A stretch of 24,000 bases of DNA. Source: Mobilitalea sibirica (GTDB taxonomy: Bacteria > Bacillota > Clostridia > Lachnospirales > Lachnospiraceae). Made by a program: the position numbers and the translations under genes. Below, piece after piece: positions 2,065-17,524 of the stretch (positions are counted from its first letter, which is position 1; every line of letters starts with the position of its first letter). The DNA lies in the NCBI RefSeq assembly GCF_015999265.1, contig NZ_JAEAGR010000001.1, positions 387,330 to 411,329 on the forward strand. Direction: 5' to 3'. Under the pieces are notes generated by a model. The model was not told the origin of the DNA. It saw only the letters and a program-made list of their open reading frames with translations, and did no database searches.

Positions 2065-3090
2065 GTGAAAATGGAAAAAAAGAAAATAAAAGTATTGGTA
2101 GTCGATGATAGTTTTGTATTCAGAGAAGCAATTATAAGAGGTATCATGAAGGACCCGGAGATAGAAGTTGTGGCAAAAGCGGGTGATCCATTTGAGGCAA
2201 GAGATAAAATTCTGGAATTCGAACCTGATGTAATGACCTGCGATGTAGAAATGCCAAAGATGAATGGTATAGACTTTGTCAAAAGACTTCTTCCCCAATA
2301 TCCCATACCGGTTGTCATGGTGAGCGGAATAAGTGGTTCTGTTTTTGATGCAATGAAAGCAGGGGTGGTAGATTTTGTTGTAAAGCCATATAAAAGTGGA
2401 CCGGAGCAAATACAGTTGTTTATAGATGAATTAATTCGAAAAATTAAAATAGCAGCGGCATCCAAGGTGACTTTAGGAAAAAATAATACCTCAAATCAGA
2501 TTTTAGAAGCTAAAAATTTGAGGAATGACAAAATTGTTGCTATTGGTGCATCTACTGGTGGAACAGAAGCAATATCCAAGATTTTGGTTCAACTTCCTTC
2601 AGATTTTCCGGGAATTGTCGTGGTACAACATATTCCACCTATGTTTTCCCGCATGTTTGCCGAAAGACTTAACAATCAAACAAAACTTCATGTGAAAGAA
2701 GCCGAAACCGGTGACTATATCGAACAGGGAAAAGTATTGGTAGCACCAGGTGATCAACATATTTTGGTAAAAAGAATCGGAACCCGTTTTAGAATTGAAG
2801 CTTTCTATGGAGAGAAGGTCAATGGGCATTGTCCTTCTGTTGATGTTTTATTTGACTCAATAGCAAAAGAGGTAGCTGATAAAGCAATAGGCGTCATATT
2901 AACCGGTATGGGTAATGATGGTGCCAAGGGTTTACTGGCAATGAGAAGACAAGGAGCGCATACCATCGGGCAAGATGAGATCTCTTCAGTCGTATATGGC
3001 ATGCCAAAAGTAGCTTACGATATAGGCGCGGTAGAAAAGCAAATGGCCCTATCAAATATATCTAATGCATTAATCAATATGTTAAAATAA
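2065..3090 (+). CDS. cheB: Chemotaxis response regulator protein-glutamate methylesterase CheB (REC + CheB_methylest)
   Basis: 341 aa. REC domain: KVLVVDDS...VMTCDVEMPKMNGIDF...VMVSG...KP. Methylesterase motifs: AIGASTGG (Ser), VVVQHIPP (His), LTGMGNDGA (Asp). The track start is GTG 2065; ATG 2071 is an equally plausible start. Confidence 0.92.
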   Translation: MKMEKKKIKVLVVDDSFVFREAIIRGIMKDPEIEVVAKAGDPFEARDKILEFEPDVMTCDVEMPKMNGIDFVKRLLPQYPIPVVMVSGISGSVFDAMKAGVVDFVVKPYKSGPEQIQLFIDELIRKIKIAAASKVTLGKNNTSNQILEAKNLRNDKIVAIGASTGGTEAISKILVQLPSDFPGIVVVQHIPPMFSRMFAERLNNQTKLHVKEAETGDYIEQGKVLVAPGDQHILVKRIGTRFRIEAFYGEKVNGHCPSVDVLFDSIAKEVADKAIGVILTGMGNDGAKGLLAMRRQGAHTIGQDEISSVVYGMPKVAYDIGAVEKQMALSNISNALINMLK

Positions 3091-3136: not shown

Positions 3137-6100
3137 ATGAGATTAAATCAAGATAAACAATGCCTATCAATTCGTCAAATTATTTTAGTTATATTTGTTT
3201 TAACCTTTATAATAGGTGCGGGTATGATTATATATTTAAATAATTATTCATGGAAAAAATCTATTGATAAAACAATTGTAGAGTATGTAAATAATATGAA
3301 TAATGAAATCATAAGAGAAATCGATGATATGGTTAGCATACCAATTAAAATGAATGAAAATAACCAGTTTATGATTAAAAATGAAATAATTGATATTAAC
3401 AATTCTGCAGAGAGAGAGCCATTTTTAGCTAATATAGTAAATACCAGTATCGATGAAATCTATAGTGTAAGTTATGGTTTGGAGAATGGGGATTTTTATG
3501 GGGCAAGAAGAAATTCTAATAATGAATTGGAACTTTATCAAAGTACAAAAGAAACGAAAGGCCATTCATTATATTATTCTGTAAATGAGAATTTAACTGC
3601 TGAGCATTTAATAAGTGATTTTGGTTTGTTTGACCCAAGAACCAGAGATTGGTATATAATTGCAAAAGAAAAAGGTGAACCAGTATTTGCTCCATTATAT
3701 AAGCATTTTGTAAAAGAGGATTTGGTGCTATCAGCTGCCTATCCTATATATAAGAATGATATTATACAAGGAGTTTTGGGCGTTCACCTTACATTGAATA
3801 GATTAAATTCCAATTTAAAAAAACTAGTAGAGAAAACCAATACCAAAGCTTATATCATTGAAGCTGATGGGCAAGCTCTCGTTGCGAATTCTATGGAACA
3901 ATCTAACTTTACGATTTTGGAAGATGGTACATATGATAGAAGAAAATTAGAAGATATCGCTGACTCTTCTATTATGAAGGCCTTTGAACTTTATGAGAAT
4001 GAAAATACAAGTTTACAATTAATGAATACGGAGAATGATAAATTTCATATAAACATAACGGATTACCAAAAACATGGTTTACAATGGAGTGTTATTATCT
4101 CTGTGCCTGAGCAATTATTCATGAAGGATAATTCTTTATTGTTCAAGATTTCAATGATGTTGTTGTTTCTAATAATTATTGTATCAATTTATATTTTTGC
4201 CAGAGTGTCAAAGCATTATCTCAAACCGGTGAATGATTTAGTCCAAGCTGCTGACAGTTTTTCAAAGGGGGACTTAACAAAAAGAGCTATTATATATAGA
4301 AATGATGAAATAGGTTCAATATCAAAGTCTTTCAATCATTTGGCAGATAAAATTCAGTCACTTATTAATAACCTGGAAGATAAAGTTGCCGAAAGGACGA
4401 AAGAATTGGAGGCAGCAGTTACTGAGTTAAAAAAAGTGAATAAAAATTTAAGTCTCGAGAAAAATAGAGCGGAAGCAGCCAGTATAGCAAAAAGTCAGTT
4501 TTTAGCTAATATGAGTCATGAAATCAGAACACCCATGAATGGTATAATCGGTTTTTTGCAACTTCTTGATGATTCTCCTTTGAATGAAGAGCAAAAAGAG
4601 TATATTCAATTGATTCAGAGTTCTACTGATACATTATTAACTGTTATCAATGATGTTCTTGATATTTCTAAAATTGAAACAGGAATGATGAAATTAGAAA
4701 GCATACCGTTTCATTTAACTTCCTTGATAGAAACAGCAGTAACACTTTTTGGAACCAGAGCAAAAGAAAAGGGATTGGAACTAAATTTAATGATTAGTTC
4801 GCAAGTGCCCTATAATGTAATAGGAGATCCTACACGAATTAGACAAGTGTTAAATAATCTTATCAACAATGCTATTAAATTTACTGAGAGTGGAGAAGTC
4901 TATGTTGAGGTATCACTTGTGAAGGAGAACGAACAAGAGATAGTAGTTTTATGTAAGGTGAAAGATACCGGAATAGGTATTAATAAGTCGGATATTAATA
5001 AATTATTCCGACCATTTAGTCAGGTGGATACTTCCATGACGAGAAAATATGGGGGTTCCGGATTAGGTTTGTCAATATGCAAAAAAATAGCAGACCTTAT
5101 GGGGGGCGATATTAAAGTAATAAGTAAAAAGAAGAAAGGCAGTACATTTTCATTTACTTTTCCACTACTCAAAAATGAAAAAGCAACAGCGCTTGAAATT
5201 TCTGACTATGCTATCTTAAAAGATAAAAAAATATTAATTATTGATGATGTAGCAATGAACCGGTATATTGCTGCTGCATACCTAACAGAGTTTGGGTGTA
5301 TGGTTGCAGAAGCAAAATCAAATGATTATGCACAGATATTACATAACAAAGCACAAAATAATGACTTTTATGATGTAATATTAATAGATTACCGATTAAA
5401 CGAAACCACTGGATTTGATGTGCTTCATAAGATAAAAGGGTCTATAAAAACAATGAATACTGCCTTCGTTTTAATTACTACGATAGCCTCTAATCAAGAA
5501 GCAGAAGGAGCAGGCCAGATTGGGTTTGAAGGTTTTATTACGAAACCATACAAAAAAGTAGAACTGTTAGATTGCATTGCAGTCGTTTTAGGAGAAAAAG
5601 AATTAATGAGAAATGATCCGATTGAACTTATAACAAAACATAAGATTCGGGAATCAAGATATAATGACAGATTAAAAATATTACTCGTAGAAGATAATGT
5701 AATTAATACAAAGTTTTTCATCAAATTAATAAACAAGCATAACCTTTTTTGTGATGTAGCTAAAAACGGGCTGGAAGCTGTAAAAGCATGTGATATGAAA
5801 CAGTATGATTTAATATTCATGGATTGTCAGATGCCGATCATGGATGGATATGAAGCAACGAAACAAATACGTGCGAAAGAAAAATCCGGAAAGCATACAA
5901 TAATCATTGCCATGACAGCCTTTGCTATGTCTGGAGATGCGGAAAAATGCATGGAAGTAGGTATGGATGACTATCTAAGTAAACCAATCATTGCTGATCA
6001 GTTGATGGATTTGATCAATAAATACAGTAATAAAATTTTTAATAAAGAGTCATCGAATGATGATGATGATTATTTTGAAAAAGTAATTAAACAACTGAGG

Positions 6101-6403
6101 GAAGATACTGATTTCAGCCATGAAGATGCGGAAGAAATTATCATTGAATTTCGTGATCATGCCCTCAAGACAGTTGAAACAATTAAGCAGTTATTTGAAG
6201 ATGGAAAAATAGAAGAGGTTCAATTATATCTACATCAATTAAAGGGGTCAGCAGGAAATGTTAGGGCTAAAGAGATTGCATCCCTAGTTGAGGATATGGA
6301 AAAGCATCTAAAAAAAGACGTTAGTATTGCAGAAATCAATAATGTCTTAGAGAGTATTTTATCAAAAGTAAAACAGTTATTTGTTAAGGTAGGGAGGTCT
6401 TAA
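3137..6403 (+). CDS. Hybrid sensor histidine kinase: TM - Cache-like extracytoplasmic domain - TM - HAMP - HisKA - HATPase_c - REC - REC - HPt
   Basis: 1088 aa. Cache-type signature DPRTRDWYIIAKEKGEPVFAPLY...VLSAAYPIY. HAMP: PVNDLVQAADSFSKGDLTKR. H-box: FLANMSHEIRTPMNGIIG. N/G boxes: NLINNAIKFT, DTGIGI, GGSGLGLSI. REC1 has acceptor D in VILIDYRLNETTG. REC2 is canonical (DLIFMDCQMPIMDGYE...MTA...KP). C-terminal HPt motif: HQLKGSAGNVRA. Confidence 0.92.
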   Translation: MRLNQDKQCLSIRQIILVIFVLTFIIGAGMIIYLNNYSWKKSIDKTIVEYVNNMNNEIIREIDDMVSIPIKMNENNQFMIKNEIIDINNSAEREPFLANIVNTSIDEIYSVSYGLENGDFYGARRNSNNELELYQSTKETKGHSLYYSVNENLTAEHLISDFGLFDPRTRDWYIIAKEKGEPVFAPLYKHFVKEDLVLSAAYPIYKNDIIQGVLGVHLTLNRLNSNLKKLVEKTNTKAYIIEADGQALVANSMEQSNFTILEDGTYDRRKLEDIADSSIMKAFELYENENTSLQLMNTENDKFHINITDYQKHGLQWSVIISVPEQLFMKDNSLLFKISMMLLFLIIIVSIYIFARVSKHYLKPVNDLVQAADSFSKGDLTKRAIIYRNDEIGSISKSFNHLADKIQSLINNLEDKVAERTKELEAAVTELKKVNKNLSLEKNRAEAASIAKSQFLANMSHEIRTPMNGIIGFLQLLDDSPLNEEQKEYIQLIQSSTDTLLTVINDVLDISKIETGMMKLESIPFHLTSLIETAVTLFGTRAKEKGLELNLMISSQVPYNVIGDPTRIRQVLNNLINNAIKFTESGEVYVEVSLVKENEQEIVVLCKVKDTGIGINKSDINKLFRPFSQVDTSMTRKYGGSGLGLSICKKIADLMGGDIKVISKKKKGSTFSFTFPLLKNEKATALEISDYAILKDKKILIIDDVAMNRYIAAAYLTEFGCMVAEAKSNDYAQILHNKAQNNDFYDVILIDYRLNETTGFDVLHKIKGSIKTMNTAFVLITTIASNQEAEGAGQIGFEGFITKPYKKVELLDCIAVVLGEKELMRNDPIELITKHKIRESRYNDRLKILLVEDNVINTKFFIKLINKHNLFCDVAKNGLEAVKACDMKQYDLIFMDCQMPIMDGYEATKQIRAKEKSGKHTIIIAMTAFAMSGDAEKCMEVGMDDYLSKPIIADQLMDLINKYSNKIFNKESSNDDDDYFEKVIKQLREDTDFSHEDAEEIIIEFRDHALKTVETIKQLFEDGKIEEVQLYLHQLKGSAGNVRAKEIASLVEDMEKHLKKDVSIAEINNVLESILSKVKQLFVKVGRS

Positions 6404-6406
6404 TGA

Positions 6407-7285
6407 ATGGAAAAAGTGATGATCATTGATGATTCTCCGATTGACCGTAAAATGATTAAATTAGCATTGAAAAGTAAATTACCTGACATTCAGTTGATAG
6501 AAGCAGACCATGGTAAAAATATTGAAGAGATTTTATATTCACAGAAAGTCGATGTATGTATACTTGATATCATGATGCCGGAGAGGAATGGATTAGAGAT
6601 ATTAAAGGAAATAAAAGAAAAGGAAAGATATAGGGATATACCGATTATTGTTTGTTCAGGATTATATGATTGTGATATCTTAGAAAAAGCACTGGAGTTA
6701 GGGGCGCATGATTATTTTTCAAAACCACTGGGAAAAAAAGAAATCTCTATTTCTCTTCCTTTAAAAGTAAAAAATGCAATCGAACTTATGAAGTGGAAGG
6801 AAAAAATATTATACCTAAGTTATCATGATGTATTAACCGGATTATATAACAGAAGATTTGTGGAAGAAGAACTAATTCAATTAGATGAATTAGAAAAATT
6901 CCCCATATCTATTATTTTAGGCGATGTCAATGGATTGAAACATACAAATGATGTCTTCGGTCACGAAGCAGGTGATGAGATGTTAAAAAGAATTGCTCAT
7001 ATACTTCAAAAAGAATGCGTTAATGGTAGAGTGGCCCGTTATGGCGGCGATGAGTTTGTAGTTCTATTACCTGAAACAAACATTATGGAAGCTAAGAAAA
7101 TGATTGAATCAATTAAGGACCATTGTATAACGCAAACAAAAGACTCTGTAAAATTATCCATATCTTTAGGTTGTGCTATGAAGAGCAAAGGTAAAAAGAG
7201 CATGAAGCGCATTTTACAAGAAGCGGAGGATATGATGTATAATGATAAACTTCAGTATAGACAAATATACCAAACTAATCCGTGA
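6407..7285 (+). CDS. Response regulator-diguanylate cyclase (REC-GGDEF)
   Basis: 292 aa. The start lies 3 nt after the hybrid-kinase stop, with GGGAGG at 6391-6396. REC: MIIDDS...VCILDIMMPERNG...KP. GGDEF domain: HDVLTGLYNRR...GDVNGLKHTNDVFGHEAGD...RYGGDEFVVLL. The GGDEF codons are 7043-7057. Confidence 0.92.
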   Translation: MEKVMIIDDSPIDRKMIKLALKSKLPDIQLIEADHGKNIEEILYSQKVDVCILDIMMPERNGLEILKEIKEKERYRDIPIIVCSGLYDCDILEKALELGAHDYFSKPLGKKEISISLPLKVKNAIELMKWKEKILYLSYHDVLTGLYNRRFVEEELIQLDELEKFPISIILGDVNGLKHTNDVFGHEAGDEMLKRIAHILQKECVNGRVARYGGDEFVVLLPETNIMEAKKMIESIKDHCITQTKDSVKLSISLGCAMKSKGKKSMKRILQEAEDMMYNDKLQYRQIYQTNP

Positions 7286-7404: not shown

Positions 7405-9210
7405 ATGGAGAAAACACAAATGAAAAAATTTGTTGATGGTAAGGTTTTATTACAATGGTTTTATTTTGGGTTTCAGGAGGTGTACCAAAATAAGAAGTAT
7501 CTAAATGCGATTAATGTGTTCCCCGTTGCTGATGGTGATACCGGCACTAACTTATCTATAACACTAAAGGCAATGGTAGAAAAACCAATAAAGGTTAATA
7601 CATTTTCAGGAATGCTTCAGGCTATTTCTGAGGCGGGTCTAGCCAATGCAAGAGGTAATTCTGGTATTTTATTTGCATCTTACGTAAATGGTATTGCCTC
7701 TGAGGGAAGTAGCTATAAGGAAGTGACTTTGGAACAATTTTCAAGCATAGCCTATAAAGCAGTTTCTTATCTTTATCAGGCTGTGGAAAAGCCGATAGAG
7801 GGTACCATGATCAGTGTAATAAAGGATTGGGCTAATTACTTATATCAAAATTTTCAAAATTACGATAATTTCAAAGACCTTTTTGCTAATGCTTACCTAA
7901 CAGCTCAAAATTCGCTGAAAATGACAACATCACAGTTAGAAGTGCTTAAAAAAAATAAAGTTGTAGACTCTGGAGCGGATGGTTTTGTAAGATTTTTAAA
8001 TGGAATTAATTATTATTATTTGGCGAAAAAAGAAGTTAAAAGTGATAATGAAGTACAAGACAGTTTTAATCTCAGTAACCATGAGCAAAGTAACTATCTA
8101 TATTGTACTGAATTTTTTATGGATATATCCGAAAAGGATATCGTACCTATACGCAAAGATTTAAAAAAAATAATTCGGGACAAAATCAACCAGTTGGGTG
8201 ATTCTTTGATAATTACATCGTTTCAGGATAAAGTAAAAATTCATATTCATACAGATGTACCAGAAATAGTGGCACAAAGTTTGCGACCCTTTGGTACATT
8301 CATTGAACATAAAGTTGATAACATGCATCTTCAAAATAGTATAAAAACAAGACAATTAAGTAGGATTGGAATAGTTACAGATTCAATTGCTGATATACCG
8401 GAGGACTATAAATTAAAACATCAAATACATACATTACCATTGGGGCTGCTTATTGATGATTCCGTATATCTGGATAAGTCAACGATTAAGTTGGAACAGC
8501 TTTTTCATCTTATGAAAGATGCTGAAAGTTATCCAACGAGCTCTCAACCGGAACCTGGCAGAGTTTCTATTTTTCTTGATAACTTATTAGAAACCTATGA
8601 TTATTTAATTTTCATAACAGTTTCAAGTGAGTTGAGTGGTACATATCAGACAATACAGCAAGAAATTAAAAAGATAAAGGATGCTGAAAAAAAGATAACA
8701 TTGATTGATTCAAAAACGAATTCCGGTGCAGAAGGCTTACTGGTAAAATATGCTTCCAATCTACTCAATAATGGTTTATCTTATGAAGAGATTGCTAAAA
8801 AGGTAAAAGAACAAATTCCCAAGACTTATATCTATGTATGTCTGAATACCCTGGAATATGCAGTAAGAAGTGGGCGTGTACCCAACACAGTAGGTAAGGT
8901 TGGTATGAAGTTGGGCCTAAGACCAATCATGACAATAGATAGGAACGGAAAAGGGGCAGCTTTTGGTGTTGGATTTAGTCAGAAGGGTATGACAAAGAAA
9001 ATATTCAACCTCATAAAATCAACGATTGCCAGAAAAGGAATTCAGAGTTACTGTATCGTACATGCAGATAATCTGGAATTAGCTATGGAATATAAAAGTG
9101 AATTAACGAAAATGATTGGTAAAGAACCTGAGTTTATTACAGAAATATCTTCTGTCGTAGCTATACATTCCGGTTTAGGGTGTGTTGCAGTCTGCTTTAC
9201 TGAAAATTAA
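7405..9210 (+). CDS. Dak2 (DhaL/FakA-like N-terminal + central region) fused to a DegV (FakB-like fatty-acid-binding) domain
   Basis: 601 aa. N-terminus has INVFPVADGDTGTNL (the Dak2 nucleotide-binding DGDTGTN motif) and ARGNSG. The central region has YLYCTEFFM...KVKIHIHTDVPE, as in YloV/FakA. From aa ~320 (nt ~8362) there are DegV signatures: RIGIVTDSIADIPEDY and YPTSSQPEPG. RBS GAGGAG lies upstream of ATG 7405. Confidence 0.85.
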   Translation: MEKTQMKKFVDGKVLLQWFYFGFQEVYQNKKYLNAINVFPVADGDTGTNLSITLKAMVEKPIKVNTFSGMLQAISEAGLANARGNSGILFASYVNGIASEGSSYKEVTLEQFSSIAYKAVSYLYQAVEKPIEGTMISVIKDWANYLYQNFQNYDNFKDLFANAYLTAQNSLKMTTSQLEVLKKNKVVDSGADGFVRFLNGINYYYLAKKEVKSDNEVQDSFNLSNHEQSNYLYCTEFFMDISEKDIVPIRKDLKKIIRDKINQLGDSLIITSFQDKVKIHIHTDVPEIVAQSLRPFGTFIEHKVDNMHLQNSIKTRQLSRIGIVTDSIADIPEDYKLKHQIHTLPLGLLIDDSVYLDKSTIKLEQLFHLMKDAESYPTSSQPEPGRVSIFLDNLLETYDYLIFITVSSELSGTYQTIQQEIKKIKDAEKKITLIDSKTNSGAEGLLVKYASNLLNNGLSYEEIAKKVKEQIPKTYIYVCLNTLEYAVRSGRVPNTVGKVGMKLGLRPIMTIDRNGKGAAFGVGFSQKGMTKKIFNLIKSTIARKGIQSYCIVHADNLELAMEYKSELTKMIGKEPEFITEISSVVAIHSGLGCVAVCFTEN

Positions 9211-9239: not shown

Positions 9240-10022
9240 ATGAAGATTATTGAGTTATCATCTTTAAGACGGTTTAATTTTTTTATGGGAATACTACATT
9301 TCCTCCAAGGTTGTTTTATGCTTTTTGTATCATTGAATATAGAAAAGGTTAAAAGCTTTACACCAGCTATTTTATCATACTATTTAACCTTTGATACAAA
9401 TCAAATGCGCCTGGTTACTGATGTGAATGAATTATTTCATTTACCATTTGGTATTTTGGTTTCTGCCTTTTTATTTGTCTCTGCAATAGCCCATTTTATT
9501 ATTGTCTTACCCGGAACCAATGGAATATATAACAGAGGACTGGAGAAAGGAATTAATCATTTCCGATGGTATGAATATTCTATCAGTTCTTCTATTATGA
9601 TCGTACTAATCTCGGTTTTATTTGGGGTTTATGATATTGGTGCATTAATTTTAATCTTTGCAGTAAATGCATCTATGAACTTATTTGGTTTATTAATGGA
9701 AAAGATAAATCAGTTTACAAAAAAATCTGATTGGAGTCCTTTTATATATGGAACAATCGCCGGTATTGCTCCTTGGATTGTAATACTGCTATATGCATTT
9801 GGTAACAGTGAACCGGATAAAATTCCATGGTTTGTATATGCCATTGTCTCTTCCTACTTTATATTCTTTAATCTATTTCCGATTAATATGGTTCTTCAGT
9901 ATCTTAAGGTTGGAAGATGGAAGAACTATCTGTATGGTGAGAAAATTTACATTGTTTTAAGCTTGGTTGCAAAATCAATATTAGCATGGCTTGTTTTTTC
10001 CGGTGTTATGCAACCTAATTAA
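9240..10022 (+). CDS. Heliorhodopsin (7-TM retinal-binding protein)
   Basis: 260 aa, about 7 hydrophobic helices. AAAGGAG at 9226-9232 lies 7 nt before the ATG, and only 29 nt separate it from the upstream stop. Motifs: GILHFLQ (H20), AIAHFI (H85), FRWYEYSISSSIMIVLI (E112, codon 9573-9575), VNASMNLFG, YIVLSLVAKSILAWLVFSG (K245, codon 9972-9974). They align with the heliorhodopsin 48C12 motifs I recall: FRWVEYSLSSS, NASMILFG, YIVLSLVAKSALAW (Schiff-base Lys). Confidence 0.85.
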   Translation: MKIIELSSLRRFNFFMGILHFLQGCFMLFVSLNIEKVKSFTPAILSYYLTFDTNQMRLVTDVNELFHLPFGILVSAFLFVSAIAHFIIVLPGTNGIYNRGLEKGINHFRWYEYSISSSIMIVLISVLFGVYDIGALILIFAVNASMNLFGLLMEKINQFTKKSDWSPFIYGTIAGIAPWIVILLYAFGNSEPDKIPWFVYAIVSSYFIFFNLFPINMVLQYLKVGRWKNYLYGEKIYIVLSLVAKSILAWLVFSGVMQPN

Positions 10023-10312
10023 TTAAGTGGTATGAGAGATAATACTATAAGAAAGACCATGAATTAATAGATAACCACTAGATGCTTACTTAATTACATA
10101 AACCATTATTATAAGAATGAATAATGATGGCAATAAGTATATATTGTATTACAGAATTCTGAACATGAGATATCAGTGCCATTTGCACTGTGAATAATGA
10201 CGAAAGGCACTTTTATTCATGGGTTTATTATTATAGTATAACTATGTAGAGAATATCTACTAACATATACTTATGTCTCCCCCCCAATGACATAGTGATC
10301 CTTTTTTCCACC

Positions 10313-10350
10313 TTAAGATACGCCCTGTTATGTAACAGGGCGTATCTTAA
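10313..10350. repeat. Perfect inverted repeat with 18-nt arms and a 2-nt spacer (strong hairpin or operator candidate)
   Basis: TTAAGATACGCCCTGTTA TG TAACAGGGCGTATCTTAA, read directly. It has a GC-rich core in an AT-rich spacer. A T6 run lies just upstream (10302-10307) and no T-run follows. It ends about 4 nt before the AAAGGAG at 10354-10360. Confidence 0.7.
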
Positions 10351-10399
10351 ATCAAAGGAGACTTTTTAATTGGAAACTATAATGCTGAGGAGTGGTACT

Positions 10400-11335
10400 A
10401 TGGAAAAAACAGAAATTATTATTCATACTAAATTAACAATTGGAGTTAGTGCATGTTGTATGGGAAGTCCAGTAAGATACAACGGAAAGGGGTGGGATTT
10501 ACTTAAAAATCTAGGACGGGAAAAGAATGATTTTCGATGGTGTCCTGTTTGTCCTGAGTGTATGGCCGGTTTAGGAGTGTTAAGAGAACCTATACGTCTG
10601 TCTGGAGGAGATGGAACTAAAGTATGGACCGGAGATGCTGAAGTGAAAAATCGTAAAGGTGAGATTGTTACTAATAAGGTGATAGAAGGTGCTTTAGCAT
10701 GTATAGAGGCCTTAAGCAGGGCTGGTGCCATAGCATATGTGTATATGGACGGAAGTCCCTCCTGCGGAGTGTACCGGACAACCCTAAAAAATACAAACAG
10801 AGGAAATCCTCCAGGTGTTTTTGGTGCAAAACTTTTGGAACTTGGATTTTTCCTAATACCGGCATCTGATTTACAAAGTCCACTAAAGTGGTGGGATTGG
10901 AGGAGACGTTTATTAGCTTTTTATTGGTTGAAAAATGTGCCATTGGATTCGAAAAACCAATTATATGAGGCTTGGTATAAAACAAAATTCTTATGCAGAG
11001 AGCTTAATCAAGAATGGACTCAAAATATTGGAAGAAATCTTGCATTAATCGTAGAAGAAGATGTTAAGGAGTTTGGTGATAGGTTTCGTAAGGAAGCCTT
11101 GGATTTACTTCGAAAGCCTTCTAATACAAAAAAAATTACCAATAGTTTATGGGCACAGTATTCATATTATAAAAAACTTCAAGGAAAATCAATAGAAGAA
11201 ATAAATGCTCCGGAAATCAAAAGAAATGTTACGTCAATTGCAAAAGAACTGTTACTTATGGAACGAAAAGCACATGAAGATAAAGTGTTTTTTGGCACTT
11301 CTCCTGTGCTTTATCGCGATAAAAGAAGCAATTAG
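10400..11335 (+). CDS. DUF523 (TudS-like [4Fe-4S] 2-thiouracil desulfidase domain) fused to DUF1722 (YbgA-like)
   Basis: N-terminal IGVSACCMGSPVRYNGKG, CPVCPECMAGLGVLREP and DGSPSCGV give the three-Cys DUF523 pattern. The C-terminal ~170 aa are helical and Trp-rich (WWDWRRRLLAFYWLK...), like YbgA/DUF1722. I prefer ATG 10400 (GAGGAG at 10387-10392). The track start TTG 10370 (AAAGGAG at 10354-10360) cannot be excluded. Confidence 0.8.
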   Translation: MEKTEIIIHTKLTIGVSACCMGSPVRYNGKGWDLLKNLGREKNDFRWCPVCPECMAGLGVLREPIRLSGGDGTKVWTGDAEVKNRKGEIVTNKVIEGALACIEALSRAGAIAYVYMDGSPSCGVYRTTLKNTNRGNPPGVFGAKLLELGFFLIPASDLQSPLKWWDWRRRLLAFYWLKNVPLDSKNQLYEAWYKTKFLCRELNQEWTQNIGRNLALIVEEDVKEFGDRFRKEALDLLRKPSNTKKITNSLWAQYSYYKKLQGKSIEEINAPEIKRNVTSIAKELLLMERKAHEDKVFFGTSPVLYRDKRSN

Positions 11336-11354
11336 GAGAGGAGGATTAATTACA

Positions 11355-12113
11355 ATGATTCATACGATGCTTTTTATTTTTGCCTATTTTCTATTATTCT
11401 TTATCATAGGAACGATAAGAAAAAACAATTCTATTGTAGATATAGGATGGGGATTAGGATTCGTTGCAGTCGCTTGGGACATACTTCTGATTACAGATGA
11501 AATCAAACTAAGTCAATGGCTTATTGTTCTATGTGTTTCTACTTGGGGTTTAAGGTTATTTATACATATTTATAAACGAAATAAAGGAAAGCCAGAGGAC
11601 TTTCGGTACGCAGCTTGGAGGAGAGAATGGGGAAAATGGCTCATACCCAGATCATTTTTTCAAATCTATATGCTACAAGCGTTTTTTATGTTTATAATCG
11701 CACTCCCAATTATTTTTACCCGGTATATTAATGATGAAGTACAATTAGGAATACTTATCATTGGATTCTTAATTTGGATAACTGGGTTTTGCTTTGAAGT
11801 GGTAAGCGACAATCAACTGAGAGTTTTTTTAAAGAAACAGGAAAATAGAGGTAAGCTTATGATGGATGGTCTCTGGCGCTTTACCAGACATCCTAATTAT
11901 TTTGGCGAAGCTACCTTGTGGTGGGGAATATATTTAATGGCATTGAGCTTAGGAGTGCCGGTACTTACAATTATCAGCCCAATTACGATCACTGTGCTTT
12001 TAGTTTTTGTATCTGGAATTCCCCTGTTAGAGAATTCAATGAAAAACAAACCAGAGTATCAAGAATATGCTGAAAAGACGAGTATATTTATACCCTGGTT
12101 TCCAAAAAAATAG
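11355..12113 (+). CDS. DUF1295 family polytopic membrane protein (steroid-5-alpha-reductase / ICMT-like fold)
   Basis: SIVDIGWGLGFV, WGLRLFIHIYKRNKGKPEDFRY and LWRFTRHPNYFGEATLWWG are the hallmark DUF1295 motifs. I prefer ATG 11355, with GGAGAGGAGG at 11335-11344. The 11205 start in the track would overlap the upstream gene by 131 nt. Confidence 0.8.
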   Translation: MIHTMLFIFAYFLLFFIIGTIRKNNSIVDIGWGLGFVAVAWDILLITDEIKLSQWLIVLCVSTWGLRLFIHIYKRNKGKPEDFRYAAWRREWGKWLIPRSFFQIYMLQAFFMFIIALPIIFTRYINDEVQLGILIIGFLIWITGFCFEVVSDNQLRVFLKKQENRGKLMMDGLWRFTRHPNYFGEATLWWGIYLMALSLGVPVLTIISPITITVLLVFVSGIPLLENSMKNKPEYQEYAEKTSIFIPWFPKK

Positions 12114-12130
12114 TGGAGGTAATAATTATT

Positions 12131-12526
12131 ATGCAACTTATCCGTAATTACATAATTACTCTTGTGGTGTTTTTAATCATTGATATGGTTTGGCTTTCTG
12201 TTATAGCAAGGCCAATCTATAAAAAGTATCTGGGATACATAATGGCTGAAAAAGTCAATCTTTTTGCTGCGTTTTTGTTCTATACCATCTTTATACTTGG
12301 AATTGTAGTATTTGTACTTAATCCAGCATTTATGAAAGGTAATTGGTCTTCAGCTTTACTTATGGGAGCATTCTTTGGTTTAGTAACCTATTCAACCTAC
12401 GACCTTACAAATCTTGCGACTGTGAAAGAGTGGCCCATATTTATTACGGTAGTTGACTTATTATGGGGAAGTTTTGTAAGTGGAATTACTTCATTAATTA
12501 GTTATCTGATTATAAAATCAATGTAA
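12131..12526 (+). CDS. DUF2177 family small membrane protein
   Basis: 131 aa, 4 predicted TM helices. LVVFLIIDMVWL...Y...L and GLVTYSTYDLTNLATVKEWP...VDLLWG match the DUF2177 pattern I recall. GGAGG at 12115-12119 precedes ATG 12131. The alternative GTG 12113 overlaps the upstream stop. Confidence 0.7.
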   Translation: MQLIRNYIITLVVFLIIDMVWLSVIARPIYKKYLGYIMAEKVNLFAAFLFYTIFILGIVVFVLNPAFMKGNWSSALLMGAFFGLVTYSTYDLTNLATVKEWPIFITVVDLLWGSFVSGITSLISYLIIKSM

Positions 12527-12578: not shown

Positions 12579-12714
12579 TGTTTAAAAATTATAAAATTAG
12601 ATAGAAACTTGATATGTCAAGCAAAACTTATTAAAAATGTCATCATTAAAGCAATCTTTTGGCAGGCATATGTATTTGGCAAACTGAAAAATTATAATAA
12701 TGGAGGAAAAACTA

Positions 12715-12873
12715 ATGAAAAAATATGAATGCCCATGTGGCTATGTTTACGATCCTATTGCAGGGGATCTTGAAAACGGGATTGAACCTGGGACTACTTG
12801 GGAAGAGCTTCCTGATACATGGACTTGTCCATTATGTGGTCTTGAAAAAGAAACCTTTACTGAAGTTGAATAA
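12715..12873 (+). CDS. Rubredoxin (52 aa), absent from the ORF track because of its size
   Basis: My translation: [57 protein letters not shown] at 12702-12706 lies 8 nt before the ATG. It aligns with Clostridium pasteurianum rubredoxin (GY.YDP...G..PGT.F..LP..W.CP.CG). The first Cys knuckle reads C-P-C-G rather than C-x-x-C-G. Confidence 0.85.
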
Positions 12874-12917: not shown

Positions 12918-13304
12918 ATGAAAAAAAATCTTGAATTTTATAGGTGTAAGCATTGTGGAAATTTAATAGTTTTTATTAATAAATCTATAGAACAGGTGAC
13001 TTGTTGTAATGAAAAAATGATGAGTATTTCTCCCAACACAGTAGAAGCTTCTGTTGAAAAGCATTTACCGGTTGTTCGATTTGAAGGTAACAAAACTAGC
13101 GTATCTGTAGGTAGTATTGAACACCCCATGAATCCTGAGCATTATATTGAGTGGATCGTACTTGAGACAGATCATGGTTTCCGGATTGAATATCTGGAAC
13201 CAGGTAATAAACCTGAAGTATTCTTTAATAAGGATGAGGCTATGCCGATAGCCGTTTATGCATATTGTAATTTGCATGGATTATGGAAAACAGATATGGT
13301 ATAG
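12918..13304 (+). CDS. dfx: Desulfoferrodoxin (2Fe superoxide reductase)
   Basis: 128 aa. The N-terminal desulforedoxin-like site is YRCKHCGNLI...VTCCNEKM. The SOR domain has EKHLPVV, HPMNPEHYIEWI and AYCNLHGLWK (His/Cys ligands of centre II). It is collinear with Desulfovibrio Dfx as I recall it. Confidence 0.9.
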   Translation: MKKNLEFYRCKHCGNLIVFINKSIEQVTCCNEKMMSISPNTVEASVEKHLPVVRFEGNKTSVSVGSIEHPMNPEHYIEWIVLETDHGFRIEYLEPGNKPEVFFNKDEAMPIAVYAYCNLHGLWKTDMV

Positions 13305-13344
13305 ATTAAATATTTATGTATCATCATGTGAAAGGATGAAGCAA

Positions 13345-13857
13345 ATGCTAAACAAAGAAGTGCTACATTTATTAAATCAACAGATCAACAAAGAGCTGTA
13401 TTCCGCATATCTTTATTTGGATATGGCAAATTATTATGCAGATCAAAATCTTAGTGGATTTGAGAACTGGTTCTATGTACAGGCTCAAGAGGAACGTGAC
13501 CATGCAATGTTGTTTCGTCAGTATTTGATAAACAATGGCGAGCGTATCGTATTAGAAGAAATTGCTGCCCCGGATAAAAAATATATCTCATTTCGAGATC
13601 CCCTTATAATTTCTTTCGAGCATGAGAAATACGTAACAGATTCTATTAATATAATATACAATGCTGCAAATCAAATAAAAGATTTTCGTACAATGCAATT
13701 TTTAGATTGGTTTATCAAAGAGCAGGGTGAAGAAGAAAAGAATGCCGATGATAATATTAAAAAGTTTGATTTATTTGCCGGTGATTCAAAAGGACTTTTT
13801 ATGTTGGATAATGAGATGAAATCCAGAATTTATAATCCACCGTCTTTGCTATTATAA
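13345..13857 (+). CDS. ftn: Non-haem ferritin
   Basis: MLNKEVLHLLNQQINKELYSAYLYLDMANYY...QAQEERDHAM...EHEKYVTDSIN...FLDWFIKEQGEEE shows the ferroxidase-centre E, ExxH, E and QxxE pattern. I prefer ATG 13345 (AAAGGA about 8 nt upstream). The track start 13258 overlaps dfx and is unlikely. Confidence 0.85.
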   Translation: MLNKEVLHLLNQQINKELYSAYLYLDMANYYADQNLSGFENWFYVQAQEERDHAMLFRQYLINNGERIVLEEIAAPDKKYISFRDPLIISFEHEKYVTDSINIIYNAANQIKDFRTMQFLDWFIKEQGEEEKNADDNIKKFDLFAGDSKGLFMLDNEMKSRIYNPPSLLL

Positions 13858-14042: not shown

Positions 14043-14281
14043 AATATATTAAGTGCTATAAATCATTTTTGAAATATAAAATTGGATATTAATGCGGATC
14101 TGGTAGAAAATATCCGGTCATCACTGTAACTTTCGTTCATCCTACCTCGGACAAAATTCTCACCCACGCGCTCATAATTTCTTTCGAGAGAAGCATACCC
14201 GGGATTTTATAGTTGTTTTTGATTGGATACCGAATACGAATAGTTTCGCTGGAAACAATAAGATTTGGAGGTGATTTTACT

Positions 14282-15055
14282 ATGATATCACGAAAATCAG
14301 TTATAACGTTTGGTATGGTCGCAATCCCAATTGCGATGTTTACAGCTACACAGGATAACGACATTCATTTTAATCAGCTGCATAAGGAAGATAATAGTCG
14401 CATTCGTTACAAGAAAAGTTGTGCCCATTGTGGAAAAGAAATTAAAGGTGAAGATATTGTTAAGGGATTTGAGTATGATGATGACAAGTATGTCGTCATT
14501 ACAGACGAAGAAATAGAGAAAATTAAAACAGAAAAAGAAAAGTCAATCCAGATCTTACATTTTGCCCAGTTAAACCAGATTTCCCCTGTCTACTATGAAA
14601 AGACCTATCAGGCGGCCCCTGAGGCAGGAGGTGAAAAGGCCTTCGAGTTGCTCAGGTCTGCTTTGATGGCAGAACAAAAGATTGCCATAGGTAAAACTGT
14701 CCTGGGAACCAAGGATACACTGATGGCAATTATACCGCGGGAGGATGGTGTGCTCATTTCCACTATGCACTATGCTGACGAGGTTAAAGCGCTACAAAGA
14801 CAGTATAATAAGCCGAATATATCCGAACAGGAGCTTGGCATGGCAAAAATGCTAATCAATTCAATGGATACACCCTTTGATCCTTCGAAATATAAAGACG
14901 AATACCAGACAAGACTTCGGGAGCTTATCGAGACTAAAATATCCGGCAAAGAGGTTGTGGCTGCTGAACCTGTAAGCGAAGGTAAGGTAATTGATCTTAT
15001 GGAGGCCCTTAGAGCGAGCGTGGAAAAAGCAAAGACAGACAAAGAAACGGCTTAA
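14282..15055 (+). CDS. ku: Ku DNA end-binding protein (bacterial NHEJ)
   Basis: MISRKSVITFGMVAIPIAMFTAT...IRYKKSCAHCGKEIKGEDIVKGFEY...YVVITDEE...PVYYEKTYQAAPE..GEKAFELLRSAL is the canonical bacterial Ku core. GGAGG at 14267-14271 precedes ATG 14282. The track start 14213 is probably too early. Confidence 0.9.
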   Translation: MISRKSVITFGMVAIPIAMFTATQDNDIHFNQLHKEDNSRIRYKKSCAHCGKEIKGEDIVKGFEYDDDKYVVITDEEIEKIKTEKEKSIQILHFAQLNQISPVYYEKTYQAAPEAGGEKAFELLRSALMAEQKIAIGKTVLGTKDTLMAIIPREDGVLISTMHYADEVKALQRQYNKPNISEQELGMAKMLINSMDTPFDPSKYKDEYQTRLRELIETKISGKEVVAAEPVSEGKVIDLMEALRASVEKAKTDKETA

Positions 15056-15058
15056 TAT

Positions 15059-17524
15059 ATGATAGGAGAATTAAAAGAATACAATCAAAAAAGGAATTTT
15101 GATAGAACCCTGGAGCCGGAAGGAGAAGCAGAATACTCAGAAGAAGGTCTGAGATTTGTCATCCAACACCACATGGCACGAAGAGAACATTACGATCTAC
15201 GTCTGGAGTGGGCAGGCGTTCTCTTAAGCTTTGCGGTACCCAAGGGACCATCCTATAAAACCAAGGATAGAAGACTAGCAGTACAGGTTGAGGATCATCC
15301 GTTGGAATATAGGAATTTTGAAGGGACGATACCCAAAGGGGAATACGGTGGAGGGGTAGTTATGCTCTGGGATGAAGGCTTTTGGGAGCCTTATATTAAT
15401 GTGGAAGAAGGCTTGCGAGAAGGTGTACTGAAGTTTGTATTAAAAGGTAGAAGACTTAAGGGAAAGTGGGCTCTAATTCGGATAAAAGGGAGTCCAGGAG
15501 AGAAAGCGGACAACTGGCTTTTTCTAAAAGAGAAGGATGAGTATGTGAAAGATACTGACGGGATATCAGGATTTGTTACCAGCATCAGGACCGGCCGCAC
15601 CATGGAGGAAATTGAGAAGGGGGAAGATGAGAAATTCATAAAAAACCCTTTTCAAGTGGCGCAGGTGCAGCTGGCTAAGCTAGTGAAGACCATACCTGAG
15701 GATGAGAATTGGCTCTATGAACTGAAATATGACGGGTATCGAATCATGGCCTTTGTGGAAGGTAACAGCGCCCGTCTAATCACTAGGAACGGGAATGATT
15801 TCGCTCATCGCTTTCATGACATAGTATCCTCTCTTTTAAGTTTCTCTTCAGGAAGAGCAATGGTTCTGGATGATGAAATCGCAGTGACAGACGCAGCGGG
15901 TAAGACCGATTTTCAGGCGCTTCAAAACTATATGAAAAACCCGAAAGGTAAAAATCTTACTTATATCGTCTTTGATCTTCTGGCGTTGGATGGGGTAGAT
16001 CTTCGTAACCGCCCTCTTATCAAGAGAAAAGAGATGCTTGAGACACTTATGAAGGATACTCCCAAAAACCTTTATTATAGCCGCTATATCAGAGGAAAAG
16101 GGAAAGAAAGCTTTGCTGTGGCCTGTGAGGCAGATATGGAAGGAATTATCGGCAAGAAGGCTGACTCTGTCTATAGCGGAACAAGAAACGGTGACTGGAT
16201 TAAAGTAAAATGTGATAAAAGGCAGGAGTTCGTAATCGGAGGCTATACCAGGTCCGAAAAAAGAACCAATGGCATAAGCTCGTTGCTCCTTGGTGTCTAT
16301 GAAAAGGAAGAACTAGTTTTTGCAGGACGTGCCGGCACAGGTTTTAGCGAAGCTGAAATGAAGAGACTGGAAGAGAAATTTGACAACATACAGAGGATGG
16401 CTTCACCTTTCCGAGTAGAGCCAAAACTAAAAGCCGATGAAAGGATTATATGGCTTGAGCCTGTATTTGTTGCGGAGATAAAATTTGCCGAATGGACCCA
16501 GGAGAATCTGTTAAGGCAGGCTAGTTATAAAGGCTTGCGAGAGGACAAGGATCCCAAAGAGGTAAGAAGAGAAAAAGCAGAGAAGGAAACAGAGGAAGAA
16601 ATAGAGGAAGAAACTCTACCTCAGTCATCTGTAGAAGAAGAGGAAAAGCCAGTGATAGATACAGACAGCCGTCTCAGGATTCAGGGAGTGAAGATTACCA
16701 ATCCAGATAAGGTGTTATTCGATGATCCTAAGATCACGAAGGAAGAGGTAATCAGGTATTATGCGGAGGTATCGATACGGATGCTGCCGTATGTGAGTCA
16801 TAGGCTTCTTAGTGCGATCCGCTGCCCCAAGGGAATATCCCAGACCTGCTTCTTTAAAAAACATCCCGGACCAGGGAGTAAACAGGTAATTGCATATCCA
16901 GTATCTACTAGTAGTGGAGAAACAGAAGATTACTTTTATGTTGAAAATGCAGCCGGACTGATAGAGGAAGCTCAGATGGGTACACTAGAGTTTCATATCT
17001 GGGGCAGCAGTGTCGAAACCCTTGAAATGCCCGATATGATGGTTTTTGATTTAGATCCGGATGAAGGAATGGAGCTTGACAGAGTACGACAAGGCGTACT
17101 GGATGTGAGAGGGATTCTTACTGAACTATCACTTAACTCCTATCTTAAAACCAGTGGAGGTAAAGGTTATCATGTGGTTGTTCCTCTTAAGCCGGTGGCT
17201 TCCTGGGAGGTTTTTCATGATTTTGCAAGACGGGTAGCAGAGGTTATGGAGCAGAAGTGGCCGGATCGTTATACCAGTAATGTAAGAAAATCCAAGCGTA
17301 AAGGCAAAATCTTCATCGATTGGATGAGAAATGGAAGAGGGGCTACCAGTATTGCACCCTATTCACTAAGAGCAAGAAAAGGAGCCAGGGTGTCTATGCC
17401 AATTTCATGGGATGAGCTTGATACGGTGGCACCAGACAGCGTCACTATGAAGGAAGCGCTTATAAGAAGCGGTGGAGACGACCCTTGGAACGGTTTTTTT
17501 GAGAACAATCAAATGCTAAAATAA
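15059..17524 (+). CDS. ligD: Multifunctional DNA ligase D (3'-phosphoesterase - ATP-dependent ligase - primase/polymerase)
   Basis: 821 aa, starting 3 nt after the ku stop. PE domain: FVIQHHMARREHYDLRLE...VEDHPLEY..FEGTIP. Ligase motif I: YELKYDGYR (Lys codon 15725-15727). OB region: VKCDKRQEFVIGGY. Glu-rich linker. Pol domain: MVFDLDPDEG, KTSGGKGYHVVVPL, IDWMRNGRGATSIAPYSLR. Confidence 0.92.
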   Translation: MIGELKEYNQKRNFDRTLEPEGEAEYSEEGLRFVIQHHMARREHYDLRLEWAGVLLSFAVPKGPSYKTKDRRLAVQVEDHPLEYRNFEGTIPKGEYGGGVVMLWDEGFWEPYINVEEGLREGVLKFVLKGRRLKGKWALIRIKGSPGEKADNWLFLKEKDEYVKDTDGISGFVTSIRTGRTMEEIEKGEDEKFIKNPFQVAQVQLAKLVKTIPEDENWLYELKYDGYRIMAFVEGNSARLITRNGNDFAHRFHDIVSSLLSFSSGRAMVLDDEIAVTDAAGKTDFQALQNYMKNPKGKNLTYIVFDLLALDGVDLRNRPLIKRKEMLETLMKDTPKNLYYSRYIRGKGKESFAVACEADMEGIIGKKADSVYSGTRNGDWIKVKCDKRQEFVIGGYTRSEKRTNGISSLLLGVYEKEELVFAGRAGTGFSEAEMKRLEEKFDNIQRMASPFRVEPKLKADERIIWLEPVFVAEIKFAEWTQENLLRQASYKGLREDKDPKEVRREKAEKETEEEIEEETLPQSSVEEEEKPVIDTDSRLRIQGVKITNPDKVLFDDPKITKEEVIRYYAEVSIRMLPYVSHRLLSAIRCPKGISQTCFFKKHPGPGSKQVIAYPVSTSSGETEDYFYVENAAGLIEEAQMGTLEFHIWGSSVETLEMPDMMVFDLDPDEGMELDRVRQGVLDVRGILTELSLNSYLKTSGGKGYHVVVPLKPVASWEVFHDFARRVAEVMEQKWPDRYTSNVRKSKRKGKIFIDWMRNGRGATSIAPYSLRARKGARVSMPISWDELDTVAPDSVTMKEALIRSGGDDPWNGFFENNQMLK

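Follow-up and report, generated by a model that had tools for sequence, protein, structure and literature searches.

The gene at positions 9240-10022 (forward strand) of the window, the whole 24-kb stretch of Mobilitalea sibirica DNA analyzed here, encodes a 260-aa protein with an ATG start that is, by homology, a genuine full-length heliorhodopsin (HeR) of this organism. The most informative feature of the locus is the set of genes flanking HeR, which encode DegV, DUF1295, and DUF2177 family proteins and which were absent from the first-pass annotation of this DNA. HeR is part of the published, HeR-specific DegV-DUF1295-DUF2177 module, whose gene order is changed here and which has acquired a RudS-like gene. 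The explanation that we lean towards, with some reserve, is that an HeR charged with scavenged retinal regulates a membrane-lipid repair module in a response to light and oxygen stress.

The HeR protein matched the Pfam Heliorhodopsin family (PF18761) with an E value of 2.8e-101 and a score of 338.3 bits (cut-off 26.7), and the match extended over model positions 1-242 of 242. It also matched the NCBIfam HeR equivalog NF038020 at 322.7 bits, where the cut-off is 100. Heliorhodopsin was the only Pfam family to match at E <= 0.01, and the bacteriorhodopsin-like family of type-1 microbial rhodopsin pumps gave no Pfam match at this threshold. RefSeq lists the same protein, at 100% identity, as "heliorhodopsin HeR [Mobilitalea sibirica]". 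A look-up of the exact HeR gene sequence returned no record. An AGGAG ribosome-binding site is located ~7 nt 5' of the ATG. HeR is a member of a seven-helix family. A crude hydropathy scan fused helices 3 and 4, leaving only six segments, and placed 7 loop charges on the N-terminal side versus 10 on the other. When the fused segment was split by hand, a manual count gave ~12 Lys and Arg residues on the N-terminal side versus ~4 on the other, and these numbers would be consistent with an N-in orientation.

Among solved structures, the HeR sequence matched TaHeR (6is6, E 7e-58) and 48C12 (6su3, E 9e-53) with ~46% identity to each, and the alignment spans the solved HeR structures from end to end. 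In the PDB alignments, residues H23, Q26, S76, H80, N101, R104, W105, E107, Y108, S237, and K241 of 48C12 correspond to H20, Q23, S81, H85, N106, R109, W110, E112, Y113, S241, and K245 of the M. sibirica protein, respectively. Likewise, H23, H82, E108, and K238 of TaHeR correspond to H20, H85, E112, and K245. In other words, the Schiff-base lysine K245 is aligned with both 48C12 K241 and TaHeR K238, and the counterion E112 with 48C12 E107 and TaHeR E108. H20, H85, E112, and K245 are the four residues that had been numbered as functionally critical before any alignment was made, and the numbers proved exactly right. All four are unchanged across 19 close HeR homologues. The dN/dS of HeR was 0.06-0.10 against three relatives, with saturation of dS limiting the comparison: six pairs were computed, the three with saturated dS were dropped, and the values come from the other three. 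The HeR gene is intact and under purifying selection, as its key residues are aligned and invariant and its dN/dS is low. The earlier description of an intact, functional-looking HeR is thus borne out by a significant, full-length profile match and by this selective constraint.

The gene directly upstream of HeR (7405-9210, forward strand) encodes a 601-aa fusion protein composed of Pfam Dak2, FakA-like_M (FakA-middle), and DegV domains. When compared with the PDB, its N-terminal part matched FakA and its C-terminal part matched FakB/DegV. The fusion is predicted to act as a fatty-acid kinase made of a single chain. Its gene is on the same strand as HeR, with 29 bp between its stop codon and the HeR start codon, and no terminator-like site was found between the two genes. 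Co-transcription of HeR and Dak2-DegV is most likely, given the short gap, the ribosome-binding site of HeR, and the lack of a terminator-like site between them.

The other two partners are encoded downstream of HeR. A DUF1295 membrane protein of the steroid-5-alpha-reductase/ICMT-like superfamily (Pfam DUF1295, E 2.6e-72) is encoded at 11352-12113 on the forward strand. Its ORF opens at 11205, and the true start is likely ~11352; the homologues found inside the HeR operons of three related loci (L002, L081, and L082) are 251 aa long. A four-helix DUF2177 membrane protein (Pfam DUF2177, E 3.9e-44) is encoded at 12113-12526 on the same strand. Judging from the 131-aa RefSeq protein, its start would be at 12131. 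The DUF2177 protein carries many invariant polar residues within its helices, and its AlphaFold model has a pLDDT of 93.4. A Foldseek comparison of this model with the PDB returned no match at E <= 0.001, and the fold therefore gave no clue to function. The gene order in the window is DegV-HeR...RudS-like-DUF1295-DUF2177, with all genes on the same strand.

The association of HeR with these families is known. The two neighbors most characteristic of HeR are DegV and DUF2177, often together with DUF1295 (Chazan et al., 10.1101/2021.02.16.431466). The same study pointed out Dak2-DegV fusions beside HeR in Firmicutes and proposed a role for the HeR neighbors in membrane lipid remodeling (10.1101/2021.02.16.431466). 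DUF2177 is also among ten groups that recur in HeR operons (Cho et al., PMC11109279). The linkage of HeR to lipid genes was considered as a new observation and rejected as such, as it has already been published (10.1101/2021.02.16.431466; PMC11109279). In Chlamydomonas, DUF2177, DUF1295, and cyclopropane-fatty-acid synthases are encoded by singlet-oxygen-induced, SAK1-dependent genes (PMC4067076), and this induction ties DUF2177 and DUF1295 to photo-oxidative lipid stress.

How far is the module conserved? HeR loci from related organisms were compared, comprising 80 from reference genomes (among the matches listed) and 3 from metagenomes. In L002 ([Clostridium] fimetarium), L081, and L082, the four genes are organized as a tight DegV-DUF1295-DUF2177-HeR operon, and the HeRs of L081 and L082 are 77% identical to that of M. 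sibirica. In L005, the order is HeR...DegV-DUF1295-DUF2177. Full-length homologues of the Dak2-DegV fusion adjoin HeR in all four of these loci. In L001 and L019, as in L002, L081, and L082, DUF2177 immediately precedes HeR. The set of four families thus occurs in three gene orders among the closest relatives, including the window, and the retention of linkage through these rearrangements argues for functional coupling. However, most of the 83 loci lack the module, including several that have 70-71% identical HeRs and full flanks. The link to HeR is therefore not universal but specific to the nearest subclade. Unbiased clustering of all ORFs in the 80 reference loci yielded no universal HeR neighbor. 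The commonest clusters within 3 kb of HeR, ORFs overlapping HeR aside, were flavin oxidoreductase-like (9 loci) and ABC-type ATPase (6 loci), as judged from sequence starts only, and neither cluster is present in the window.

The L002 locus has an additional feature. Directly upstream of its HeR operon lies a gene for a 285-aa protein that combines an XRE-type HTH with two B12-binding domains. This protein carries W-x9-EH and E-x-H-x-x-G motifs, which we take to be the signature of CarH/LitR B12 photoreceptors. It would suggest light-regulated transcription of the HeR operon in L002. A search of the other loci and of the window found this regulator in L002 alone. Other cultured hosts with the same module are known, [Clostridium] fimetarium DSM 9179 among them.

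The comparison of loci also bears on a different partner for HeR. Directly upstream of the HeR locus, on the same strand and separated by short gaps, Pfam identified genes for a methyl-accepting chemotaxis protein (MCP, 230-1936), CheB (2065-3090), a hybrid histidine kinase (3137-6403), and a REC-GGDEF protein (6407-7285). HeR may be a sensory receptor that acts through these proteins, such that light sets motility or the c-di-GMP level and the anaerobe leaves lit oxic zones. A GGDEF gene is also found ~1.4 kb upstream of the HeR module in L002. The signaling genes are, however, not kept beside HeR: L081, L082, and L005 lack them, and elsewhere among the 80 loci only scattered matches of 23-34% identity were found. 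Furthermore, two-component genes are abundant in Clostridia, making a chance adjacency to HeR likely. We know of no transducer-like partner for any heliorhodopsin, which also counts against signaling through this route. Genes with HisKA, HAMP, MCP_signal, GGDEF, and Response_reg domains have been found in HeR neighborhoods of several phyla (PMC8612252). Weighing both sides, we regard a sensory pathway through the upstream genes as doubtful. On the other side of the locus, a non-homologous end-joining pair, Ku (14213-15055) and LigD (15059-17524), both identified by Pfam on the forward strand, is mentioned as context only; no counterparts of either gene were found near HeR in the 80 related loci.

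The module in the window is interrupted by a long spacer and an extra gene. The spacer between HeR and the next gene is 347 bp long (10023-10369) and contains a perfect palindrome at 10313-10350, with arms of 18+18 nt that are 100% complementary and with no second copy in the window. The RNA hairpin of the spacer has a folding energy of -31.2 kcal/mol (z -6.2), and its outer stem covers the ribosome-binding site of the downstream gene. The palindrome is a candidate that could serve as a terminator or attenuator hairpin, or as an operator. Because of the long spacer and the strong hairpin after HeR, the module is probably transcribed here in more than one unit. A search of the whole window against Rfam gave no match, and hence no known riboswitch is present in the spacer.

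The extra gene (10370-11335, forward strand) encodes a TudS (DUF523) domain (Pfam 2-thiour_desulf, E 7e-26) followed by a weak DUF1722-like C-terminus. The TudS motifs SAC, CPE, and GSPSCG of the product align with those of the TudS structure 6z92. The DUF1722 match (17.8 bits, E 0.004) falls under the cut-off of 22.5 and covers about half of the model. The product is a RudS-like, putative tRNA 4-thiouridine desulfidase. RudS is a TudS-DUF1722 fusion that strips photosensitive 4-thiouridine from tRNA and is typical of light-responsive operons (PMC11417400). A RudS-like gene adjoining HeR was found in none of the 83 related loci, among the matches listed. The only feature new to this locus is the insertion of this gene into the HeR module.

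The genes that follow the module fit an oxygen-sensitive host. M. sibirica P3M-3T, a strict anaerobe of the Lachnospiraceae, is an isolate from a microbial mat (PMC8104048). Like HeR, the DUF2177 protein encoded in the window is 100% identical to an M. sibirica entry, so the oxygen sensitivity previously surmised for the host from its genes agrees with the organism. The rubredoxin and desulfoferrodoxin genes on which that view had been based are also genuine. Rubredoxin (12700-12873) matched Pfam Rubredoxin at E 1e-20 and has an atypical first knuckle, C-P-C-G. Desulfoferrodoxin, a superoxide reductase (12918-13304), matched Pfam Desulfoferrodox (E 1.2e-18) and Desulfoferrod_N, and its NCBIfam TIGR00320 match (E 1.9e-35, 121.8 bits) is under the cut-off of 146.9. 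Both belong to a context of defense against oxygen and reactive oxygen species. A non-haem ferritin at 13336-13857 (Pfam Ferritin, E 8e-36; NCBIfam non-heme ferritin match under the cut-off) adds a context of iron sequestration. All three genes are on the forward strand.

Where would such a host obtain retinal? Pfam scans of all substantial ORFs detected no phytoene synthase, phytoene desaturase, lycopene cyclase, Blh, or RPE65-type family in the 24-kb window. The ORF that leaves the window at its 3' end is a paralogue of a solute-binding lipoprotein, with 92.6% identity. The retinal-forming carotenoid cleavage enzymes so far known need O2. The first-pass annotation had noted the lack of carotenoid and retinal biosynthesis genes in the window, which these scans corroborate, and had gone on to speak of a genome with no visible retinal source; that statement holds for the 24 kb, but as a claim about the genome it reaches past that scope. 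The puzzle of the chromophore source that it raised is likewise real but not new. A complete de novo retinal pathway was found in 1 of 381 HeR-only genomes, and HeR clusters mainly of strict or facultative anaerobes have been reported (Bulzu et al., 10.1101/2021.02.01.429150). Strictly anaerobic Firmicutes with heliorhodopsins were described by the same authors (PMC8612252; 10.1101/2021.02.01.429150). The presence of HeR in an anaerobe without a retinal pathway is, in other words, an already known and documented general property of HeR hosts. The blh gene and HeR co-occur mostly where another rhodopsin is present (Chazan et al., 10.1101/2021.02.16.431466). The family as a whole gave 6,695 matches at E <= 1e-20, and the best 120 of these 6,695 came mostly from Clostridia, Tissierellia, Syntrophomonadaceae, and Alkalibacterium.

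One answer to this question is that no chromophore is used. HeR would then have a light-independent membrane role in the strict anaerobe, such as lipid binding, or would be mostly idle. The lack of retinal genes in the window and the oxygen requirement of the known cleavage reaction speak for this, as do the description of the source mats as non-photosynthetic (PMC5187383) and the bound lipids seen in HeR crystal structures (10.1101/2021.02.16.431466). However, the Schiff-base lysine, the counterion, and their polar surroundings are invariant in 19 homologues and the dN/dS is low, a pattern to be expected only where chromophore binding is important. The neighbors of HeR also belong to light-associated families, and a life without chromophore is quite unlikely.

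A second answer is that strict anaerobes get the HeR chromophore without O2-dependent cleavage, either by an endogenous route or by using a chromophore other than retinal. M. sibirica would make retinal or another polyene by an unknown O2-independent route in which the reductase-like DUF1295, DUF2177, and Dak2-DegV proteins might take part. In that case, these proteins would serve to supply the chromophore and not to repair lipids. The existence of a still undiscovered retinal pathway has already been proposed, as functional rhodopsins are formed in a bacterium that lacks blh (Nakajima 2020, as cited in 10.1101/2021.02.16.431466). The trio of DegV, DUF1295, and DUF2177 is characteristic of HeR genomes (10.1101/2021.02.16.431466), and DUF2177, a protein with no known fold relative, has many intrahelical invariant polar residues. 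On the other hand, no carotenoid precursor pathway is present within the window, the three families show no sign of polyene chemistry, fatty acids are the ligands of DegV proteins, and the module is wholly missing from many HeR loci. Both the general idea of an O2-independent chromophore supply and its specific form in M. sibirica are very unlikely.

The remaining explanation concerns what HeR does rather than what it binds. HeR groups with the prokaryotic 48C12 and TaHeR, for which we know of no ion transport in the published characterization, and its conserved operon partners point to regulation rather than transport. That HeR is a light-gated channel or transporter for ions, as are some viral heliorhodopsins, one of which is reported to transport protons (PMC11109279), is hardly credible.

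The lipid-repair explanation that we favor would work as follows. HeR would be a seven-helix, retinal-binding protein that senses light rather than pumping ions. M. sibirica would make no retinal and would take it from pigmented aerobic neighbors in a thin, air- and light-exposed mat. Light-activated HeR would then modulate the fatty-acid kinase, DUF1295, and DUF2177 by direct contact, as reported for other HeRs and their partners glutamine synthetase, photolyase, and an ABC transporter, and the outcome would be the remodeling or repair of membrane lipids. We know of no physical interaction of HeR with DegV or DUF2177, which counts against this mechanism. For an anaerobe living at an oxic interface, light may serve as a signal of imminent photo-oxidative damage, a view that agrees with the presence of genes for rubredoxin, superoxide reductase, and ferritin beside the module.

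Several published observations bear on these steps. A neighboring ABC transporter is up-regulated by light-activated HeR (PMC11109279), and photolyase and glutamine synthetase are regulated by operon-linked HeRs, as cited in 10.1101/2024.05.16.594530. Efficient uptake of exogenous retinal has been reported (Shihoya et al. 2019, as cited by Bulzu et al.). The mats from which M. sibirica was isolated are 1-2 mm thick and colorless to pink or pinkish (PMC5187383). Aerobic Flavobacterium and Hydrogenophaga are present in them (PMC5187383). The mats are termed non-photosynthetic, however, so a rich supply of retinal is not obvious, which counts against scavenging.

The role of HeR and the source of retinal in its hosts have been standing questions since the family was described in 2018. 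The locus adds no new principle to them: the protein is named in RefSeq, the paradox is documented, and the partner module is published. What it offers is a strictly anaerobic type strain in culture (DSM 26468) that carries the full set of HeR, fatty-acid kinase, DUF1295, and DUF2177, together with a RudS-like light-operon marker and O2-defense genes, within ~6.5 kb. M. sibirica is thus a usable model for the lipid-remodeling hypothesis and for the source of retinal under anoxia.

How does the locus compare with known systems? The M. sibirica HeR is known here from its sequence, and its likeness to 48C12 and TaHeR is by alignment. It is identical to both in the Schiff-base lysine, the glutamate counterion, the two histidines, and the nearby Ser, Asn, Arg, Trp, and Tyr residues. 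It differs from 48C12 in having Met in place of Q213, as does TaHeR, and Leu in place of W146. The hosts differ as well, as 48C12 and TaHeR come from a freshwater actinobacterium and an archaeon, respectively, whereas M. sibirica is a strictly anaerobic member of the Lachnospiraceae.

The light-responsive operons typical of RudS contain photolyase and LitR/CarH genes. The window resembles them in that the gene for a photoreceptor is accompanied by a TudS-domain gene whose catalytic motifs are intact, and differs from them in having neither a photolyase nor a MerR/LitR gene and in the weakly detectable DUF1722 part. Compared with the neighborhood described by Chazan et al., all three partner families are present in the window on the same strand and within 2.5 kb, including the Dak2-DegV fusion. 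In contrast to that neighborhood, HeR directly follows DegV rather than DUF2177, and HeR and DUF1295 are separated by a TudS/RudS-like gene. Finally, the HeRs linked to glutamine synthetase, photolyase, and the OmrDE ABC transporter have other partners than the fatty-acid-kinase-like fusion and the two DUF membrane proteins of the window, which are known here from their genes alone. As in those systems, the M. sibirica HeR adjoins its presumed target and is probably co-transcribed with it, and the role proposed is one in regulation, not transport.

A gene for a putative tRNA 4-thiouridine desulfidase (TudS/RudS-like; 10370-11335) separates the heliorhodopsin (HeR) gene from the DUF1295-DUF2177 pair. 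Light-responsive operons are the typical setting of RudS genes (PMC11417400). None of the 83 related HeR loci, 80 from reference genomes and three from metagenomes, carried a counterpart of this gene adjoining HeR. The spacer upstream of the TudS/RudS-like gene contains a perfect palindrome (10313-10350) with two 18-nt arms separated by 2 nt, and a window-wide search found it only once. As RNA, it folds with a predicted energy of -31.2 kcal/mol (z -6.2), and in the predicted outer stem CCUUUU is base-paired to the TudS/RudS-like gene's ribosome-binding site. The palindrome may serve as a terminator, in translational control, or as an operator.

AlphaFold models the DUF2177 protein (12113-12526) as a four-helix membrane bundle at high confidence (pLDDT 93.4). 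Numerous invariant polar residues lie within its predicted helices. The invariant positions are D18, Y30, and Y51, followed by the stretch Y87-x-T89-Y90-D91-x-T93-N94-x-x-T97 and then W101-P102. A Foldseek comparison of the model with solved structures in the PDB returned no match at E <= 0.001.

Further downstream, the first metal-binding knuckle of the rubredoxin (12700-12873) reads C-P-C-G in an alignment with a reference rubredoxin, which leaves it a residue short of the canonical C-x-x-C-G. The protein scored 80.1 bits against the NCBIfam rubredoxin model, below the cut-off of 90. Directly after the O2-defence genes lies an end-joining repair pair of Ku and a full-length LigD (14213-17524), the latter with phosphoesterase, ligase, and primase-polymerase domains. 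No counterpart of the Ku/LigD pair was found near HeR in the related loci. Towards the window end, a large solute-binding lipoprotein is present as two tandem paralogues (19955-22183 and 22217-24000) that share 92.6% identity over 594 aa; the second copy extends beyond the window.

HeR homologues with 65-69% identity were also found in metagenome bins named Sphaerochaeta, Spirochaetales, Muribaculaceae, Thermotogales, Thermotogaceae, and Kosmotogaceae (loci L021, L025, L028, L038, L039, L049, L050, L054, L056, and L062). Heliorhodopsins are reportedly almost absent from double-membraned bacteria. These occurrences may therefore reflect binning errors or gene transfers. In nine loci, a protein of ~767 aa is encoded within 3 kb of HeR, represented by a Syntrophomonadaceae bin (L033, 5851-8154). 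By the start of its sequence alone, it resembles flavin oxidoreductases of the old-yellow-enzyme/dienoyl-CoA-reductase type.

In [Clostridium] fimetarium (locus L002), a protein combining an XRE-type HTH with two B12-binding domains is encoded at 5951-6808, directly upstream of the DegV-DUF1295-DUF2177-HeR operon. This protein contains the motifs W-x9-EH and E-x-H-x-x-G, which we take to be the signature of CarH/LitR B12 photoreceptors. The protein could be a light-responsive regulator resembling CarH/LitR whose DNA-binding domain is unusual.
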